Below, one piece after another: positions 1,289 to 52,704 of a stretch of 64,000 bases of DNA. The stretch is from the NCBI RefSeq assembly GCF_018977255.1, contig NW_024704742.1, positions 50,470,001 to 50,534,000 on the forward strand, written 5' to 3'. The position numbers and the translations under genes were made by a program. Every line of letters begins with the position of its first letter. Position 1 is the first letter of the stretch. Under the pieces are notes generated by a model. It made no database searches. It saw only the letters and a program-made list of their open reading frames with translations, and was not told the DNA's origin. This DNA comes from Callorhinchus milii. Lineage: Eukaryota.

Positions 1289-4200
1289 ATAGAATTATAT
1301 AGCACAGAAGGAGACCATTCAGCCCATCGTGTCTGTGCCAGCCAGCTCTTTGAAAAGAGCTATCCAATTCAATCCTATTCCCCAGCTCCCTCCCCATAGC
1401 CTTGCAAACTTGTCCTCCCCAAATAATGATCTACTTCTCTCTTAAAAGTTGTTATCGAATTGGCTCCACCATCCTTTCAGACAATGCATTCCACATCCGA
1501 ACTATTCTTGTGTGAAAAAAATTCTCCTCACCTCCCATCTGTTTCTTTTAACAACTATTTTAAATCAGTGTCCTTGGGTTACTGACAACATGCCAGTGAA
1601 AATAGTTTCTCCTTGTTCATCCTATTGAATCCCCTCACAATTTTGAAAATTTCTATTAAGTCTCCTCTTAACCTCCTCTGCTCCAAGGAGAATAATCCCA
1701 GCTTCTCTAACCTCTCCTGATAACTGAAGTCCCTCATTCCTGGTACCATCCTGGCAAATCTCCTTTGCACCCTCTCCAATGCCTTGACATCCTTCCTAAA
1801 GTGTGATGCCCAGAACTGAACACAGTCTCGCGCTGAGGCCTAACCAGTGTTTTATGGAGGTTCGTCATAACTTCCTGACTTTTGTATTCTATGCCCCTAT
1901 TTATAAAGCCGAGTATCCCGTATGCTTTTTTTTTAAAAACAGCTTTATCTACTGAGTCCTGCTACCTTCAAAGATTGATTTATATGAACCCCCAGGTCTC
2001 TCTGTTCCTTCACCCCCTTTAAGATTCTGCCATCAGCTTATACTGCCTCTCATTCTTCCTCCCAAAATGCATCACTTCTCCACATTAAACTTCATCTGCC
2101 ACGTGTCTGCCCATTTTACCAGTCTGTCTATGTCCATTTGAGGTTTGCTACTATCCTCCCCCCTGTTTACTATTTTTCCTAGCTGAGTATCATCTTGGAA
2201 ATCTGGAAATTGTACTCCTATACCCAAGTCCAGGTCCTTTATATAGATCAAAAACAGCAATGGTCCCATTACTGACCTCTGGGGGACACCACTGTACACT
2301 TCCCTCCAGTCAGAAGAATAACCATTCACCACCATTCTCTGCTTTCTATCTCCCAGCCAGTTCTGTATCCATGCTGCCGCCGTCCCTTAAATACCATGGG
2401 CTTCTATTTTGCTTACAAGCCTCTTAATGTGGCACTTTATCAAACACCTTTTGAAAATCCATATAAACTACATCAACTGCACTACCTTCATCCACCCTCT
2501 CCGTTACTTCATCAAAAAACTCTATCAGGTTTGATAGACATGATTTGCCTTTAACAAATCCACGTTGGCAATCTTTTATTAACCCATATTTGTCTAAGTG
2601 AAAATTTATTTTGTCCTGAATTATAGTCTCTAGATGTTTCCCCACTACTGATGTTAGGCTGACGGGCCTGTAGTTCCCGGCTTTATCTTCCTGCCCCTTT
2701 TTTGTGCAGGGGAGTAACATTTGCAATCCTCCAGGCCTCTGGCACCAACCCAGTGTCCAAGGAGGATTGAAAGATTGTTGTCACGGTCTCCGTTATTTCT
2801 ATCCTTATTTCCCTCAGTAACCTAGGATGCATCCAGTCCAGAAGACTTATCTACCTTGAGCACCGACAACCTTTTTGCACCTCCTCTCGGCTTATTCTTA
2901 TCTTATCCAATTTCTCTACTCTCTCCTCCAATACTGTGGTATTGGTTGCATCTTCTTTTGTGAAGACAAATGCAAAGTATTCATTCCGTACGTCAGCCAT
3001 GCCCTCTTTCCCTACAAGAAAATTTCCTCTTTGGTCCCTAATTGGACCCACCCTACCTTTGACTAACCTTTTATTCTTTATATGCTTATAAAATACCTTA
3101 GGGTTCCCTTTTATGTTACCTATTAATCTAATGATGTTGTGATTACTGTTGTCCGGATGCTCTCCTACTGAAACCTGCTCCACTTGCCCCACTTCATTCC
3201 CCAGAACTAGATCCAGCACTGCTTCCTTCCTCATTGGGCTGGAAACATACTAATCCAGAAAGTTATCGTGCACAATTTCAGGAATCCTTCCCCCTCCTTG
3301 CCCTTTACACTATTAGTTTTGCCAGTCTATGTTAGGATAATTGAAGTCCCCCATTATCACCACTATTATTAGTTTTGCATCTTTCTGAAATCTGCTTGCA
3401 GATTTGCTCGTCTATCTCCTTCCCATTATCCAATGGTCTATAGTATACACCTAACAAAGTAGCAGCTCCTTTTCTGCTCCTTAACTCTAACCAAATAGAT
3501 TCTGTTTTGGGATCCTCTAGCACATCATCCCTTTCCAGCGCTGTAACCATGTCTTTAATCAATATTGCCACACCCCTCCTTTTTTCCTTCCCTACCCTCC
3601 TGAATACATTGTAGCCAGGAATATTTAGCTCCCATTCCTGCCCTTGTTTGAGCCAGGTCTCCGTTATCGCCACTACATCATAACCCCATATGGTAACTTG
3701 AGCCTGCAGCTAACCAATCTTATTTGTTACTCTCAATGCATTTATGCACATGGATTCCAAGACCGACTTAGTCTGTTCTGCATTTCTCCCTATCTAATCC
3801 CTCCTTTGTCTGGATTACTCCTTATTACATTGCTATCCATCTCTCCTAGCCCTCTATGTAACTTGTTTGTCCTCTCTAATGCTACATCCTGATACCCTTC
3901 ACCCCTCGAAATTGGTTTAAACTCTTCCCCAGAGCACTAGTTAACCTCTCTGCAAGGGCATTGGGCCCAGCCCTGTTCAGGTGTAACCCATCCACCTTGT
4001 ACAGGTCCCACCTGCCCCAGAACTGGTCCCAATGATCCAGGAACCTGAATCTCTCTTTTCTGCACCATTTTTCGAGCCATGCATTCCTGTGTTTGATCTT
4101 GCTGTTTGATATTCACTTGCATGAGGCACAGGGAGTAATCCAGAGATCACCAACTTTGAGGTCCTACTCTTTAGCTTTTTTTCCCTAGCTTCTGATACTC

Positions 4201-12780: not shown

Positions 12781-13709
12781 GGTATGGGAGAGGACACTCT
12801 CAGTATTAAATTACACCTTTTGAAAAGAGCATCTCCTGTATACACAGTTTACAGTAAAAATCATATGAATGTGATCTCACAGAGTCTAGGGTAGGCTGAC
12901 AATTAAAAGCAGTGCTGAGGTGAGCTGCGTTGTTGGAAGCACCATCCTTCAGATGAGACGTTAAAACCAATTCCCATCTGTCTGTTCTAATGAATATTAA
13001 ATATAGAAGCTTGAAGGGATATGGGGTTAGGGCAGGGCAGTGGGACTGAAGGCTCAGTTTGCTCTGAGAGCTGGTGCTGCCTCCCATTAACCCATGGCAG
13101 TACCACTATGGAAGTAATCGCATAGAGGTGGATGTCCTATGGGTCAACAAGAACTGCTTCTAGTCAGTGGAAGGATTCACTATTTAAGTGATTCTGACCC
13201 CTCAATAAGGAATCCTATAATGAAGAACTCCAAATTAAACCATGATATGGTTTATTAGTTTAAAGATGAAATTCTGTTTTTCTGCCTTTAGCTCTGGGTA
13301 TTCTGATTTCTGAAACTTTCCACATCCTCACTAATATTTTACATTGATTTTCAGATGATAAATGCGATGTATAGATTTAATAGGGTTATCATCCAATACC
13401 AGTACAAGAGGGTATTTATTACATTATTCTCCAAATAAAATGAAGTATTTTGACCTCAGCTGATGTACCAATGGCTTCTATAGATGAAAGCAGTTATCAG
13501 AAGCAATAGCACAGCTGCTTAGTATTCAGCAAGCTTCAGCTTACCCATTGTTTCACTCATGCAGAACAATCCTTGAACTAGAATTCATTTGGATGACTTT
13601 CTACGCAACAGAGTACAAATCAACAAAAACTGCAAATTATCCTGTGAACTGTCAGTCAAAGAGGTTTATTTTTAAACAAGTATAAAGATCTTCCACACTT
13701 CTTTTTCAG

Positions 13710-13792
13710 AATCACAACTACAGCTGCTTGCATGATGGACCTGCGGAGGTACCCCTTAGATGAACAGAACTGCACGCTGGAAATCGAGAGCT
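13710..13792 (+). CDS. gabrb1: GABA-A receptor beta subunit, exon 5 (83 bp; Cys-loop: [27 protein letters not shown])
   Basis: ctttttcag| acceptor and |gtaagt donor; translation matches the GABRB Cys-loop exon and has the canonical 83-bp length. Confidence 0.95.
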
Positions 13793-23884: not shown

Positions 23885-25317
23885 TAGGACTTTAGTTCAT
23901 AAGGTTGAGGACATGTCTAATAGAAAAGTGTGGGTGCACGTGTTCTGCATTTTCCGCCTCAACGGTCCTCGTCTGCTACAAGCCTGCTACAAACATCCCC
24001 TCGGGTACCAGCTTTTACACGCAGTGCGCAAACTAATAGCAACTAAGAGGCACAGGCCTTTTGCGCTGTTTGCTTGACGCCGCTACTATGGCTGGAGCGT
24101 CTCCGATAGCGCATTCGCTGCGCTGTGAATTTGAGGATTGCGGAAGCAGATTGTGCAGGAAATCAACTTCGCTTGTGAGTAAACGTCGATAGGAAAAGCA
24201 GCTGCTTCACACTACTGTACTGCGATGAATACTTGGTAAGTGCTGTACTATTCAAATTAAAATATTTAGTATTTTAAACATAACTACATTTTCAGCAAAT
24301 ATATACCTATAGTTTTAATCAGGGTTGTTTCACTTTTTAGGTTGTACAATACAAAAATGACCAAACGTTTTTGTAAATCCTGTAAGGAAGCCAAGGGACA
24401 ACACTTCTCAATTTCCGTCTGTCCCTCAGATAGAATTGTATTCTATCCAGATGGCCTTTACGAAGACAGGAGCAGTTGTTTTGCCGTGTTTGCTGTCATA
24501 CAATTGACCATGTTAGCAAGTGCACCCTTGATGAGCACATGAAATCTCAGCAACAATGTGAACGCAAAGTAGCGGCAATAAAGAAAAAAATGAAGGTAAA
24601 ATACTTTTGATGTATATAATATTAAATGAAATTGTATCATTATTTGTTTTCACTTTAATTTAGAAAGAAAATCTTAATTTGTATGATTACAATAGTTAAT
24701 CTCCTTCCTTTTTGATTCAATTTTAAAAGCACGTAAAGCAACCACAGCAAACAAAAACAAATGGAAAGAACATTTCTAACGACAAATGCATCATGAAGAT
24801 CAATTGTTATATTTTTCTTTCTAGGCAGATCTGGACCTCAAAGACAACTTGCTCTAGTGACCTGCTTCTCTAGAGCCACTGCATCATCTATGGAGAGGAA
24901 AGAATTCATATTGGACTTTGTGCAGTGTTTGACTCGAGCAGACATATTGCTTGAAAAAGCTCCTGCCTTCCATGAGTTTGTATGCAAGACACAAAACAGG
25001 GAGGGACTATTCCAACACCATCAAGCTTCGTAATACATATTTGAAGGAACTTATTCATGAGCATGAAGCATTTTTGAAGAAACATGTTGAGGACACGGAA
25101 GTTTTTTTTTCCAATAATCTATGATGTGTTATTTCATCATGTTTAGTTTTTAAAAATGAGAAAAGAAAAAATATATAGGTTAGAAGAAAAATGTGTCTCT
25201 GAATAGCACCAACTGGCCCTCCGGAATTTCCCGCAAAATACGCAAAGTGCTCCACAATTTTTGCAAATATTTTCGTACTTTTCTATTTTCGTACTTGTCC
25301 CAGGTTATGACTCCCTA
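23885..25317 (+). mobile_element. Internally deleted hAT-type DNA transposon with CGGBP1-like coding remnant
   Basis: Imperfect terminal inverted similarity (left tcataaggttgaggacatgtctaatagaaaagt vs right reverse complement tagggagtcataacctgggacaagtacgaaaatagaaaagt), CpG-rich 5' part, CGGBP-like exons; left boundary approximate. Confidence 0.75.
24357..25125 (+). pseudogene. Frameshifted CGGBP1-like (zf-BED + Hermes-type DNA-binding domain) transposase N-terminus, two coding exons (24341-24595, 24825-~25125)
   Basis: Reconstructed SVCPSDRIVFYPDGLYEDxEQLFCRVCCHTIDHVSKCTLDEHMKSQQ and RQLALVTCFSRATASSMERKEFILDFVQCLTRADILLEKA..KQGGTIP..LRNTYL align with recalled CGGBP1 motifs; GT-AG introns. 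Confidence 0.82.
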
Positions 25318-26109: not shown

Positions 26110-26555
26110 TCATCACACTAGTCCTTGCTAGGCTCCAGTGGCTCCCAATTACTGAATGGATCGATTTTAAAAATCCTCTTACTCATTTTCAAATCTCTTC
26201 ATTCCCTCGCATCTCCCTACCTATCCGATCTGCTTACCCACCACTCCACCACCCGTGGCCTCTGCTCGGCTGTTCCAGCCTCTTGCTTGTCAATCATCCC
26301 TTCTGCTCCACCATTGGTGGCAATGCCTTCAGCCACTACCCCCCAAAACTCCGGGACTCTTTCCCTCAATCCTTCCGCCTTGCCCCTCCCTCCACACTTT
26401 CAAATCCCACCTAAAGACCTTCCTTTTTGATCGTGCTTACGGTCACCACCCCTCTCCCTCTTCTCCTGGCTCAGGATCAGACTCCGCCACTGTCAAGTGC
26501 ACCGGGCCACTACCCTGTGTAAAGGGCGCTATATGAATGCAAATTGTTGTTGTTT
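26110..26555 (+). mobile_element. L2 3' fragment (same subfamily as 50748-51925)
   Basis: C-terminal L2 motifs and gggcgctatatgaatgcaaattgttgttg tail. Confidence 0.85.
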
Positions 26556-28127: not shown

Positions 28128-28265
28128 ATGGCTACACAACCGATGATATTCAGTTCTATTGGAGCGGTGGTAAATATGCAGTCACAGGAGTAGAAAAGAT
28201 TGAATTGCCACAGTTCGACATAGTTGATCACCAGATGATTTCAAAACTAGTGGTTTTTGCCACAG
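28128..28265 (+). CDS. gabrb1: GABA-A receptor beta subunit, exon 6 (138 bp; [47 protein letters not shown])
   Basis: ttttacag| acceptor, |gtaaac donor; phase fits exons 5 and 7; loop B/F/C sequence of beta subunits; not in the ORF track. Confidence 0.95.
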
Positions 28266-29269
28266 GTAAACCATTTAATAAGAAATTCAGACTACGTCAC
28301 TTCTATCAATGAATTTTGCGTATGATTGTTGTACACTAATAGGTATCATAAACTTAAGTAGATTATGTCAGACCGTTGCCTAAATATATTTAGAGCCCAT
28401 TAACATTGAGATACAGTCTAATCTCATTAGGAATTGTAATGACAACTTCTTGTTATAACAAAGCTTTTCCACTGTCTCAGTTTCCCATTAACATCTGTCA
28501 AGAAACTCAAGCCTCTATAAGATGAGCCAATGATAAGAATTGCTTAATTGATTCCCTTACATTTGTTAAATGAAGTCTTGACTGTATTCCAAGAATCTCA
28601 TGCTTTCTTATTGAGTCTCATTAGGCCTTTAATTTGTTCCTGGAATTTTGAACAAAGTTGGAATATTCACATGTGAATTCTTGAATTGAATTTGACGCAT
28701 ATATTATTATTATTGATCTTTTGGTCAACAAAGATTAGTAATTATATCCAGAGTAAATCTTTACAAATAGTCTGTCAGAAATCAACATTGCTTTTGGTAT
28801 CTTTGAATTTTGGTCTTATAATATTGATAACAGAATCCAACAGTTCCATTCAAGTTGTAAAAGCTGTGTGCCTACGACACTGAAATTTGCTGTAGGGTTC
28901 CTGTAAAGGCCAACAGGGCAAAGGTATCTCCTGGTGAAGACTGGCATTCAGGCCGCAGTCACAGATTCAAATCCTCGCCTATTCCTTTAACATTCAGAGA
29001 CATTACCCCAAGTTAAGGGCATTATATAAAGCAAGATGTTATTGTTGTTGCTAATCAGCCTAACTCAATTTGTTTGACATTTGGGGCAGTACGATTGTCT
29101 TCAGCACCAGGAACAGGAATGGGAAAAATTATGCTTCACTTTCCAAACTGTTAAACAGAGATCACTGCATGTAGGTGTGTGTGTTTGAATGTTGGGTAAG
29201 ATAGGATTGGACTCAGCTTTGATGGCCCATAGGCTAAGAGTGACAGACACAGTCTTCTAATAGCTCACA

Positions 29270-31089: not shown

Positions 31090-31350
<261 letters not shown>

Positions 31351-31922
31351 TAACTACAATCACTAATCTGGAACTGTGCTACAGTCTGAGGATGTACATT
31401 ACCTACTGAGCTATGGATACCTGGAAATGAGTACAAAGCATCAATCTTGTGCGTATGTGTTTAAATATCAGGCGAAGTTCACATAATGATATCAGTCAAG
31501 ACTGACACTACAATGCGAAATAACAAATTCATCACCTGCAAGCCCAAATAGTTCCTCACATTTATCCTTTCAAACACTGTTTTTATCTGAAATATTTTGA
31601 TTATATCACCCCACTAACAAAAGTGACATAAACTTATATTGCATTCTTCCTGTGTGATAATGCCCAAACCAAAGGATTAACAATGTTTTAGTATAATTGG
31701 TGCATATTTATCAAATAGTAATGCACTGCTGACAACCAGAAAATAACAAATCTATATAATACTTTGTTATTGTCAGATGGTTATACTCTTAAAAAGAGAA
31801 GATGTGTCAGGATCAGGCAGTCACAGTTGGCTTCAGTAAGTGTGTGTGCTTTGTGTGATCAGCATGTTGCAGTGTAAAGATGTTCCTGTGTATTGATTCT
31901 GTTTTTTTTCAACATTTTACAG

Positions 31923-32173
31923 GAATCACAACTGTACTCACCATGACAACTATCAATACTCACCTCAGGGAAACTCTTCCGAAGATCCCCTATGTTAAGG
32001 CCATTGACATTTACTTGATGGGCTGCTTTGTCTTCGTATTCCTGGCTTTACTGGAGTACGCCTTTGTAAACTACATCTTCTTCGGGAGAGGGCCACAGCT
32101 TCAGAAGAAAGCAGCTGAGAAAGCTGCTCAGACCAACAATGAGAAGAGCAGGATGGAAACCAACAGAGTGCAG
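31923..32173 (+). CDS. gabrb1: GABA-A receptor beta subunit, exon 8 (251 bp; M2, M3, start of M3-M4 loop)
   Basis: ttttacag| ... CAG|gtacat; [55 protein letters not shown]...METNRVQ; AIDIYLM and terminal VQ are beta1-type. Confidence 0.95.
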
Positions 32174-52356: not shown

Positions 52357-52704
52357 GTTGATGCCCACGGAAATATTATCCTGACAACACTCGAAATTAG
52401 GAATGAAGTCACCGCTTCAGAGGTGCTGACAAGTATCAGTGATCCAAGAGGGACCATGTATTCTTATGACAGTACCAACATCCAGTATCGAAGGCCAACT
52501 GCAGGCAGAGATGGCTACGGTAGAAGCACGTTGGAAAGGCATATGGTTCAGAAGAAAGGACGTTTACGGAGACGGGCGTCACAACTTAAAGTCAAAATCC
52601 CAGATCTGACTGACGTGAACGCCATAGACCGGTGGTCACGGGTAGTCTTTCCTATTACATTTGGTTTTTTTAACTTAGTGTACTGGCTCTATTATGTCCA
52701 CTAA
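52357..52704 (+). CDS. gabrb1: GABA-A receptor beta subunit, last coding exon 9 (M3-M4 loop with RRRASQLK phospho-motif, M4, stop)
   Basis: ctttttattgcag| acceptor; [39 protein letters not shown]...[12 protein letters not shown]; closest to recalled beta1 (ends YYVH; beta2/3 end YYVN). Confidence 0.93.

Follow-up and report, generated by a model that had tools for sequence, protein, structure and literature searches.

The question raised by this locus is why a sequence resembling CGG triplet repeat-binding protein 1 (CGGBP1) should lie within a receptor gene of Callorhinchus milii, and whether it is the remnant of a transposon, the pseudogene of a host gene or something put to use where it lies. 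The sequence was pointed out in an earlier note on a stretch of 64,000 nucleotides (nt), here called the window (C1:50470001-50534000), within the 991.5-Mb assembly that was searched for further copies. The evidence points with high confidence to positions 23913-25303 of the window being a fossil, non-autonomous copy of an old hAT DNA transposon family, inserted within an intron of a gamma-aminobutyric acid type A (GABA-A) receptor beta-subunit gene and oriented in the sense direction. This copy is without a function of its own today.

A DNA search of the assembly with the 1433 bases delimited in the earlier note, in which 40 of 727 first-look candidates were scored, returned at least 69 matches, with identities of 77-88% for the long matches and a span of 68-92% for all 69. 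The 19-nt end motif of the family, with up to two mismatches allowed, occurs 1802 times in the genome (930 + 872) against six times (2 + 4) for a reversed control, which bears out the suggestion that the sequence is multi-copy. Homology between copies continues through the proposed introns and the non-coding 5' part, indicating a repeat at the level of DNA and no retro-copied mRNA. If the window copy were instead the pseudogene of a host (domesticated) CGGBP-type gene, this would agree with the size and architecture of the retained part, which are those of CGGBP1 (a zinc finger and a DNA-binding module, and no core), and with the NCBI and Ensembl/UniProt gene models that exist. These models (five UniRef entries from Callorhinchus milii and one NCBI model) are, however, predictions on sister copies, the NCBI model P0004 being named "LOW QUALITY PROTEIN: CGG triplet repeat-binding ...", and the sister copies are 65-78% identical and broken, while the window copy carries four frameshifts and lacks one zinc ligand. 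Copies with terminal inverted repeats and 8-bp target duplications number in the hundreds, the repeat takes in the introns and the non-coding flanks, and longer copies carry a transposase core. A search for an intact exon 2 (82 matches, 106 candidates) found six open full-length matches, the query included, all of them decaying copies 65-77% identical, and none that stands out as a conserved host gene. Judged from the sequences, copy number and ends refute an origin from a host gene, the probability of which is negligible. The family is of importance chiefly for annotation, as it yields spurious "CGGBP1-like" or "uncharacterized" gene calls in this genome.

The ends of the family were defined by aligning nine left and 11 right ends, which have a 22-nt inverted repeat, CTGGGCCAATAGAAAAGTGCGG, in common. 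The flanks of different copies are unrelated beyond a further 8 bp, and these 8 bp form direct repeats, such as CTTATCAG/CTTATCAG in copy L002. Among 20 copies with both ends, the two 8-bp flanks match at 8/8 positions in six, 7/8 in five, 6/8 in three and 5/8 or fewer in six, such that 14 reach at least 6/8, compared with 0/20 reaching even 5/8 in a control that used the adjoining 8 bp on the outer side. Terminal inverted repeats and 8-bp duplications, which the earlier note had proposed to look for, are thus a property of the family. The duplications fit the nTnnnnAn target preference of hAT elements, with position 2 being T in 12/19 ends and C in 7/19, and position 7 being A in 17/19. The insertion sites are unusually uniform and palindromic across the family, following nTnATGAn (often GTCATGAC), in comparison with which the general hAT preference is looser. 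This bias inflates chance matching of the flanks, yet non-consensus variants also recur in pairs, and as direct rather than inverted repeats. Perfect end motifs were also observed in inverted pairs approximately 0.5-0.8 kb apart (C1:22293458-22293978, C1:73658065-73658678, C1:113844139-113844858 and similar); these are probably derivatives of the family that resemble miniature inverted-repeat transposable elements. Some end pairs in the genome lie only 0.5-1.5 kb apart.

Other copies carry 1.0-1.4 kb of extra sequence at the point corresponding to window position 25102/25104, and eight copies that retain both ends are 2579-3069 bp long. The long copy L011 is collinear with hAT transposases of 589-612 amino acids (aa) from other animals, full-length relatives that were reached through the N-terminal profile described below, and residues 97-559 of one of these (P0019, 594 aa, sea urchin) align to it in one piece (E 3e-43). 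A majority consensus, built from 32 long or partial copies and spliced at predicted intron 2, comprises 595 codons, one of them a TAA (read as X), and aligns with residues 13-587 of the 594 of P0019 (575 residues, 34% identity, E 2e-109). It holds the motifs DETTD, CIAHLLNL and STADVERSFS, with catalytic residues assigned by motif alone. Pfam searches with single open reading frames (ORFs) of long copies gave only a weak match to DUF659 (E 0.0079). When unaltered C-terminal pieces of four copies were compared with Dimer_Tnp_hAT (PF05699; cut-off 21.4 bits), two exceeded the cut-off (L024:1636-1905(-), 29.3 bits; L030:2284-2511, 23.3 bits), a third scored 18.8 bits and the fourth had no match. 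Among the 30 long relatives that the N-terminal profile retrieved, 11 have Dimer_Tnp_hAT and 17 have DUF659 (E<=0.001).

The likeness to CGGBP1 was examined with a profile (A3) of 28 unaltered sequences, consisting of five database proteins from sister copies and translated pieces of the window and of other loci. Searches with word-indexed methods gave same-species proteins only, and CGGBP1 was therefore reached by an exhaustive profile search of 1.84 billion representative proteins, which matched 539 at E<=0.001, 111 of them at E<=1e-10. Listed 18th, with an E-value of 2.1e-20, is P0018, which belongs to a 90% cluster bearing the name CGG triplet repeat-binding protein 1 (with sequences from Sorex, Bos, Papio and others). 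The Callorhinchus protein P0002 and P0018 are 40% identical over 137 aa by BLASTP (E 7e-24), hhalign of A3 with P0018 gives a probability of 99.3%, and the nearest ESM Atlas cluster, a lead only, is "CGG triplet repeat-binding protein 1-like" (score 0.96). Residues C27, C30, H45, H51 and P94 (P0002 numbering) are kept in at least 90% of 109 relatives, and none of the five is missing from the family consensus. A mammalian CGGBP1 searched against the 64-kb window with tblastn finds marginal matches only, to 24342-24571 (E 7.6e-4) and 24839-25006 (E 0.11). The collinear match to CGGBP1 claimed previously is thus real but weak for the window copy taken alone, and it is decisive only through the profile of the family sequences.

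It is established that CGGBP1 derives from a hAT element, as the earlier note had stated for CGGBP proteins, that CGGBP-like modules have been domesticated many times, and that Pfam and SMART miss the domains of CGGBP1; a CGGBP1 model matches 29/824 RepeatMasker hATs, mainly hAT-19 (Yellan, Yang & Hughes 2021, PMC8097297). Membership was judged here by comparing the family profile with mammalian CGGBP1, substituting for the Panther/InterPro model used in that work. The earlier note took the element for a fossil of a chondrichthyan CGGBP-type transposon related to the source of the CGGBP genes. The transposon family and its homology to CGGBP1 are upheld, but the relationship is not an especially close one. 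In a phmmer search started from CGGBP1, the Callorhinchus protein (69 bits) comes 51st among 150 representatives taken from the list of the profile search, behind the coelacanth protein LOC102354807 (P0026, 634 aa, 195 bits), P0014 (596 aa), the horn-shark protein P0130 (666 aa) and others. In a FastTree phylogeny of the DNA-binding module (144 columns; 108/109 rows, one with less than 70% coverage being dropped), the five Callorhinchus proteins form one clade (support 0.996) beside two unnamed proteins (0.83), and CGGBP1 groups apart from them, with a snake orthologue and the coelacanth protein. Decay lengthens the Callorhinchus branches, and the ranks in both analyses are rough for this reason. 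The picture of the origin of amniote CGGBP1 is consequently unchanged, with closer transposase relatives in the coelacanth and the horn shark. Both P0130 (Heterodontus francisci) and P0026 are full-length proteins with a CGGBP-like N-terminus that are closer to amniote CGGBP1 than the window family is; P0130 carries Dimer_Tnp_hAT, and P0026 is without a Pfam match at E<=0.001.

A number of observations weigh against the attribution to a CGGBP-like hAT family and its detailed anatomy. The terminal consensus of hAT elements is YARNG, which is typical rather than defining, and the family ends, CTGGG, fit it at 4/5 positions, with T for A at position 2. The copy counts are lower bounds or counts of motifs and no curated census. 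The left end of the window copy, at about 23913, is badly degraded, with its outer 7 nt unrecognisable and its target duplication matching at 5/8, and the copy's own ends therefore rest on the family pattern. Of the autonomous copy with a DDE domain that had been envisaged, the components were found, as longer copies carry a DDE/RNase-H-like core and the hAT C-terminal domain, but none of the copies examined is intact, and activity, DNA binding and splicing are all inferred for that reason. Pfam found nothing significant on the frame pieces of the window, and zf-BED (PF02892) and the Hermes DNA-binding domain (PF10683) matched neither these nor the pieces of long copies. Searches of the PDB by sequence, with P0002 and with profile A3, returned no relevant solved structure. 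An AlphaFold model of 147 aa (pLDDT, the model's own confidence score, 88.9) predicts a helical domain preceded by a small zinc finger made up of a beta-hairpin and a helix. With this model as query, Foldseek listed none at E<=0.001 (best E 0.49; the BED domain of ZBED1 at rank 36, E 5.1), and a wide VIA-align comparison listed U1/matrin-type zinc fingers (Z 5.2-6.1) and generic helix-turn-helix folds (Z ~4-5) and did not list Hermes. These model-based matches are weak and generic, yet they are no evidence that the folds differ.

The departure of CTGGG from YARNG, and the failure of Pfam to see the N-terminal module, could also be read as signs of another DNA-transposon superfamily, or of a chimera that captured a CGGBP-like ORF. 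Such an origin is extremely unlikely, as the consensus is collinear from end to end with hAT transposases bearing Dimer_Tnp_hAT, the same domain is found on natural pieces of the family, and positions 2 and 7 of the target duplications are T and A, respectively.

With the family taken as hAT, the history of the window copy may be proposed as follows. The ancestral element would have been about 2.7-2.9 kb long, with 22-nt terminal inverted repeats (CTGGGCCAATAGAAAAGTGCGG), 8-bp target duplications with the preference nTnATGAn, and a three-exon gene for a transposase of about 595 aa. This protein would have consisted, in order, of a C2H2 zinc finger, a helical module homologous to CGGBP1, an RNase-H-like core (DETTD, CIAHLLNL, ..VERSFS) and the hAT dimerisation domain. 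By analogy with hAT biology, the DNA-binding module would have served to recognise the element's CG-containing ends and subterminal regions, and cutting and pasting would have fallen to the core. The window copy lost approximately 1.36 kb with the whole core, probably by abortive gap repair, after which it could have been mobile only by means of transposase from other copies. Neutral decay would then have brought the four frameshifts, removed one zinc ligand and left the copy about 7-8% diverged from the consensus.

The present state of the window copy is summarised in Table 1. The earlier note placed the element at 23885-25317, a span that has to be shortened on both sides, as the family alignment puts the ends at about 23913 and 25303 and gives a length of about 1.39 kb. 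The right end, GTCCCAG at 25297-25303, is followed directly by GTTATGAC. The ends implied by the longer span (TAGGAC.. at 23885 and ..CCCTA at 25317) were dropped, since beyond the 8-bp duplication the sequences of the copies are unrelated. A 9-nt tandem duplication, TTCGTACTT, was also observed at 25288-25296, within the right terminal inverted repeat.

Table 1. Coordinates of the element and of neighbouring exons, given as window positions.
Feature	Position	Strand	Evidence
Probable remnant of left target duplication, GTTGAGGAC, with one extra base	23904..23912	.	5/8 match to GTTATGAC and family end structure; weak for window copy alone
Degraded 5' terminal inverted repeat (family form CTGGGCCAATAGAAAAGTGCGG), outer 7 nt mutated to ATGTCT	23913..23933	+	alignment of 9 left and 11 right ends; genome-wide motif count
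CpG-rich 5' subterminal region and untranslated first exon; putative promoter/leader of transposase gene	23913..24235	+	composition; conserved in copies from window 23919 onward
Predicted intron 1, GT..AG, GC 0.24, upstream of start codon	24236..24340	+	GT in 23/27 copies, AG in 26/27
Exon 2, with ATG 24357, C-x2-C...H-x5-H zinc finger, 1-nt deletions after 24465 and 24583, last His now Gln	24341..24595	+	family alignment; ATG kept in 17/24 copies; aligns to CGGBP1 from Met1
Intron 2, GT..AG, 229 nt, GC 0.24	24596..24824	+	frame continuity in family consensus; relatives' proteins skip it
Exon 3, first ~93 codons, helical DNA-binding module (..FILDF..LEKAPAF..GGTIPTP..NTYLKEL..), 1-nt deletions after 24988 and 25023	24825..25102	+	
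Internal deletion junction, ~1.36 kb of full-length element missing	25102..25106	.	breakpoints 1098|2461 in L011 coordinates
3' subterminal region and 3' terminal inverted repeat (..CGTACTTTTCTATT / GTCCCAG), interrupted by 9-nt duplication	25103..25303	+	
Right 8-bp target-site duplication, GTTATGAC, fitting family preference nTnATGAn	25304..25311	.	
Cys-loop exon, GABA-A receptor beta subunit, upstream of element	~13708..13792	+	Pfam Neur_chan_LBD match; translation
Next host exon, downstream of element	~28128..28267	+	Pfam and motif searches
Host exon	31198-31350	+	
Host exon	31922-32170	+	against solved structures: beta-1 134.7, beta-2 151.6, beta-3 149 bits
Last host exon	52375-52686	+	against solved structures: beta-1 158.7, beta-2 143.9, beta-3 117.9 bits

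Much of the internal description given in the earlier note is borne out. The peptides quoted there are present at 23885-25317, spread over shifting frames; the "about four" 1-nt frameshifts are exactly four 1-nt deletions relative to the majority consensus; and the last zinc-ligand His, kept in at least 90% of 109 aligned relatives, is Gln (CAA) in the window. The conserved Pro of the IPLEK motif is in addition replaced by Leu. The segment described as CpG-rich, 23913-24235, has a GC content of 0.50 and an observed/expected CpG ratio of 1.0, the values over the whole window being 0.40 and 0.32. What the copy has lost is the whole catalytic core, from just before DETTD, together with the hAT dimerisation domain, this deletion being the reason that Dimer_Tnp_hAT is absent from it. 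All that it retains is the zinc finger together with the helical DNA-binding module, in a frame that ends ..VFFSNNL.

The divergence of the window copy from the consensus, as the Kimura two-parameter distance, is 0.080 (0.066 without CpG sites), in comparison with medians of 0.094 and 0.075 over 27 copies of the family, with a non-CpG range of 0.059-0.104. That the window copy falls within this range suggests a neutrally decaying copy from one old burst. It also bears on the possibility that the copy was co-opted where it lies, serving the beta-subunit gene as, for instance, a cryptic exon or a regulatory element, a reading with which its position on the same strand, its two acceptor and two donor GT/AG sites, all intact, and the CpG ratio of its 5' segment would be consistent. 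A divergence typical of the family, however, gives no sign of constraint, and co-option is considered very unlikely.

The proposed exon and intron structure was also assessed across the family. All the letters named in the earlier note for two GT-AG introns and a start codon are where they were said to be (GT 24236-37, AG 24339-40, ATG 24357, GT 24596-97, AG 24823-24), and the exon/intron picture is supported by the difference in composition, as both proposed introns have a GC content of 0.24 and the exons 0.40-0.42. For intron 2, the GT is kept in 24/27 copies and the AG in 23/27, the reading frame of the consensus leaves exon 2 in phase 1 and is continued in exon 3 beyond the intron, and the proteins of relatives bridge the gap of about 250 nt in the DNA with no or few residues missing. 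Frame continuity, relatives' proteins and an ancestral GT/AG thus support the predicted intron 2. Intron 1, which lies in the untranslated leader, is predicted from its GT (23/27 copies) and AG (26/27) and from composition only. The start codon, kept in 17/24 copies, aligns with Met1 of CGGBP1. In the RNA contigs of four runs, neither 24235/24341 nor 24595/24825 was seen as a joint; other copies were the source of many pieces, and such contigs cannot settle splicing.

The window copy is one of several deletion derivatives. The breakpoint 1127|2387 (L011 coordinates) is shared by L004, L039 and L043, with L002 at 1116|2387, and the breakpoint 1012|~2020 by L041 and L042. The window and three other copies break near 1098 on the left, with right breakpoints that differ. 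The presence of shared breakpoints in several copies indicates that deletion derivatives were themselves amplified. Many long copies likewise descend from a master that was already broken, as suggested by codon 107 (equivalent to about 24905 in the window), which is TAA in 13/27 longer copies (L012, L013, L023, L037 and others) and GAA in seven; a master with a premature stop, encoding the zinc finger region only, seems to have been amplified. The short forms keep the whole DNA-binding frame and stop a few codons past the junction, just before the first catalytic Asp, and the natural ORF of the short copy L002 ends ..DVYLFLND. It may be speculated that young short forms, with promoter and introns, would have encoded a DNA-binding-only protein of about 180 aa, similar in size and architecture to CGGBP1 (167 aa). 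That such truncated products competed for the ends as repressors of the transposase, and that DNA-binding-only copies are the usual stepping stone to host CGGBP genes, is a tentative idea and on balance a doubtful one. The parallel between the architecture of the short forms and that of CGGBP1 is nevertheless the only point here that is suggestive beyond routine annotation.

A spectrum of internally deleted copies that keep both ends is also known from Ac/Ds-type pairs of elements, from which the window family differs in that its commonest short forms retain the entire DNA-binding ORF and end just ahead of the first catalytic Asp. For the family, the arrangement described in the literature for the Hermes transposase may be assumed (zinc finger, then helical DNA-binding domain, RNase-H-like core and C-terminal hAT domain), although no sequence or fold match links Hermes to the 147-aa model of the window family. 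Amniote CGGBP1 (167 aa) is collinear with the family from Met1 and has the same C-x2-C-x14-H-x5-H finger and ..DFV..IPLEKA..GG.IP...LR..YL module, but is a single-copy host gene without transposon ends, whereas the family is mobile and all its examined copies are decayed.

The closest counterparts are the published CGGBP-like hATs, mainly those of the Repbase hAT-19 subclass (PMC8097297), which like the window family encode a hAT transposase with an N-terminal zinc finger and a helical region homologous to CGGBP1, have CG-containing ends and Pfam-blind domains, and are patchily distributed in fishes and other animals. The novelty seen in the earlier note was overrated, since these elements have already been published, and the window family may already be in Repbase. 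Cartilaginous fish, from one of which the family comes, are not mentioned in the main text of that paper, nor are they named in the text of its supplement, its species Table S1 aside. A literature search found no paper on CGGBP-like hAT elements in sharks and none linking Callorhinchus with hAT-19; transposable elements of the elephant shark in general are covered in passages of Chalopin et al. (2015). The family adds a cartilaginous-fish lineage to the published picture of CGGBP-like modules as a feature of one particular hAT clade with a scattered distribution among animals. The anatomy of such a family is documented as well, namely its ends, its strict palindromic target nTnATGAn, its three-exon gene and its DNA-binding-only deletion derivatives.

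The surrounding gene was identified from five Cys-loop receptor exons found on the + strand of the window by Pfam and motif searches (Table 1). The earlier note described the element as hidden in an intron of gabrb1, and it does lie in an intron, between the exons at 13708-13792 and 28128-28267, of a GABA-A beta-subunit gene with which it shares its strand. The identity of the subunit is split, the exon at 31922-32170 favouring beta-2 and the last exon beta-1, and on the sequence comparisons gabrb1 is a plausible assignment. The window holds the 3' half of this gene, and three more Cys-loop receptor genes were observed upstream on the opposite strand (C1 50.02-50.34 Mb). Vertebrate GABA-A receptor genes occur in gamma-alpha-alpha-beta clusters, an arrangement that the genes around the window resemble. 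Two further observations concern the flanks of copies. A long open frame in the flank of L008 (~3609-4109 (-) and 1-400) is unrelated to the window family and resembles part of a retrotransposon protein. Approximately 0.9 kb to the right of the element in the window, a separate and unrelated repeat (26167-26554) recurs beside the sister copies L003 (3743-4125) and L002 (589-648), with 76-77% identity.

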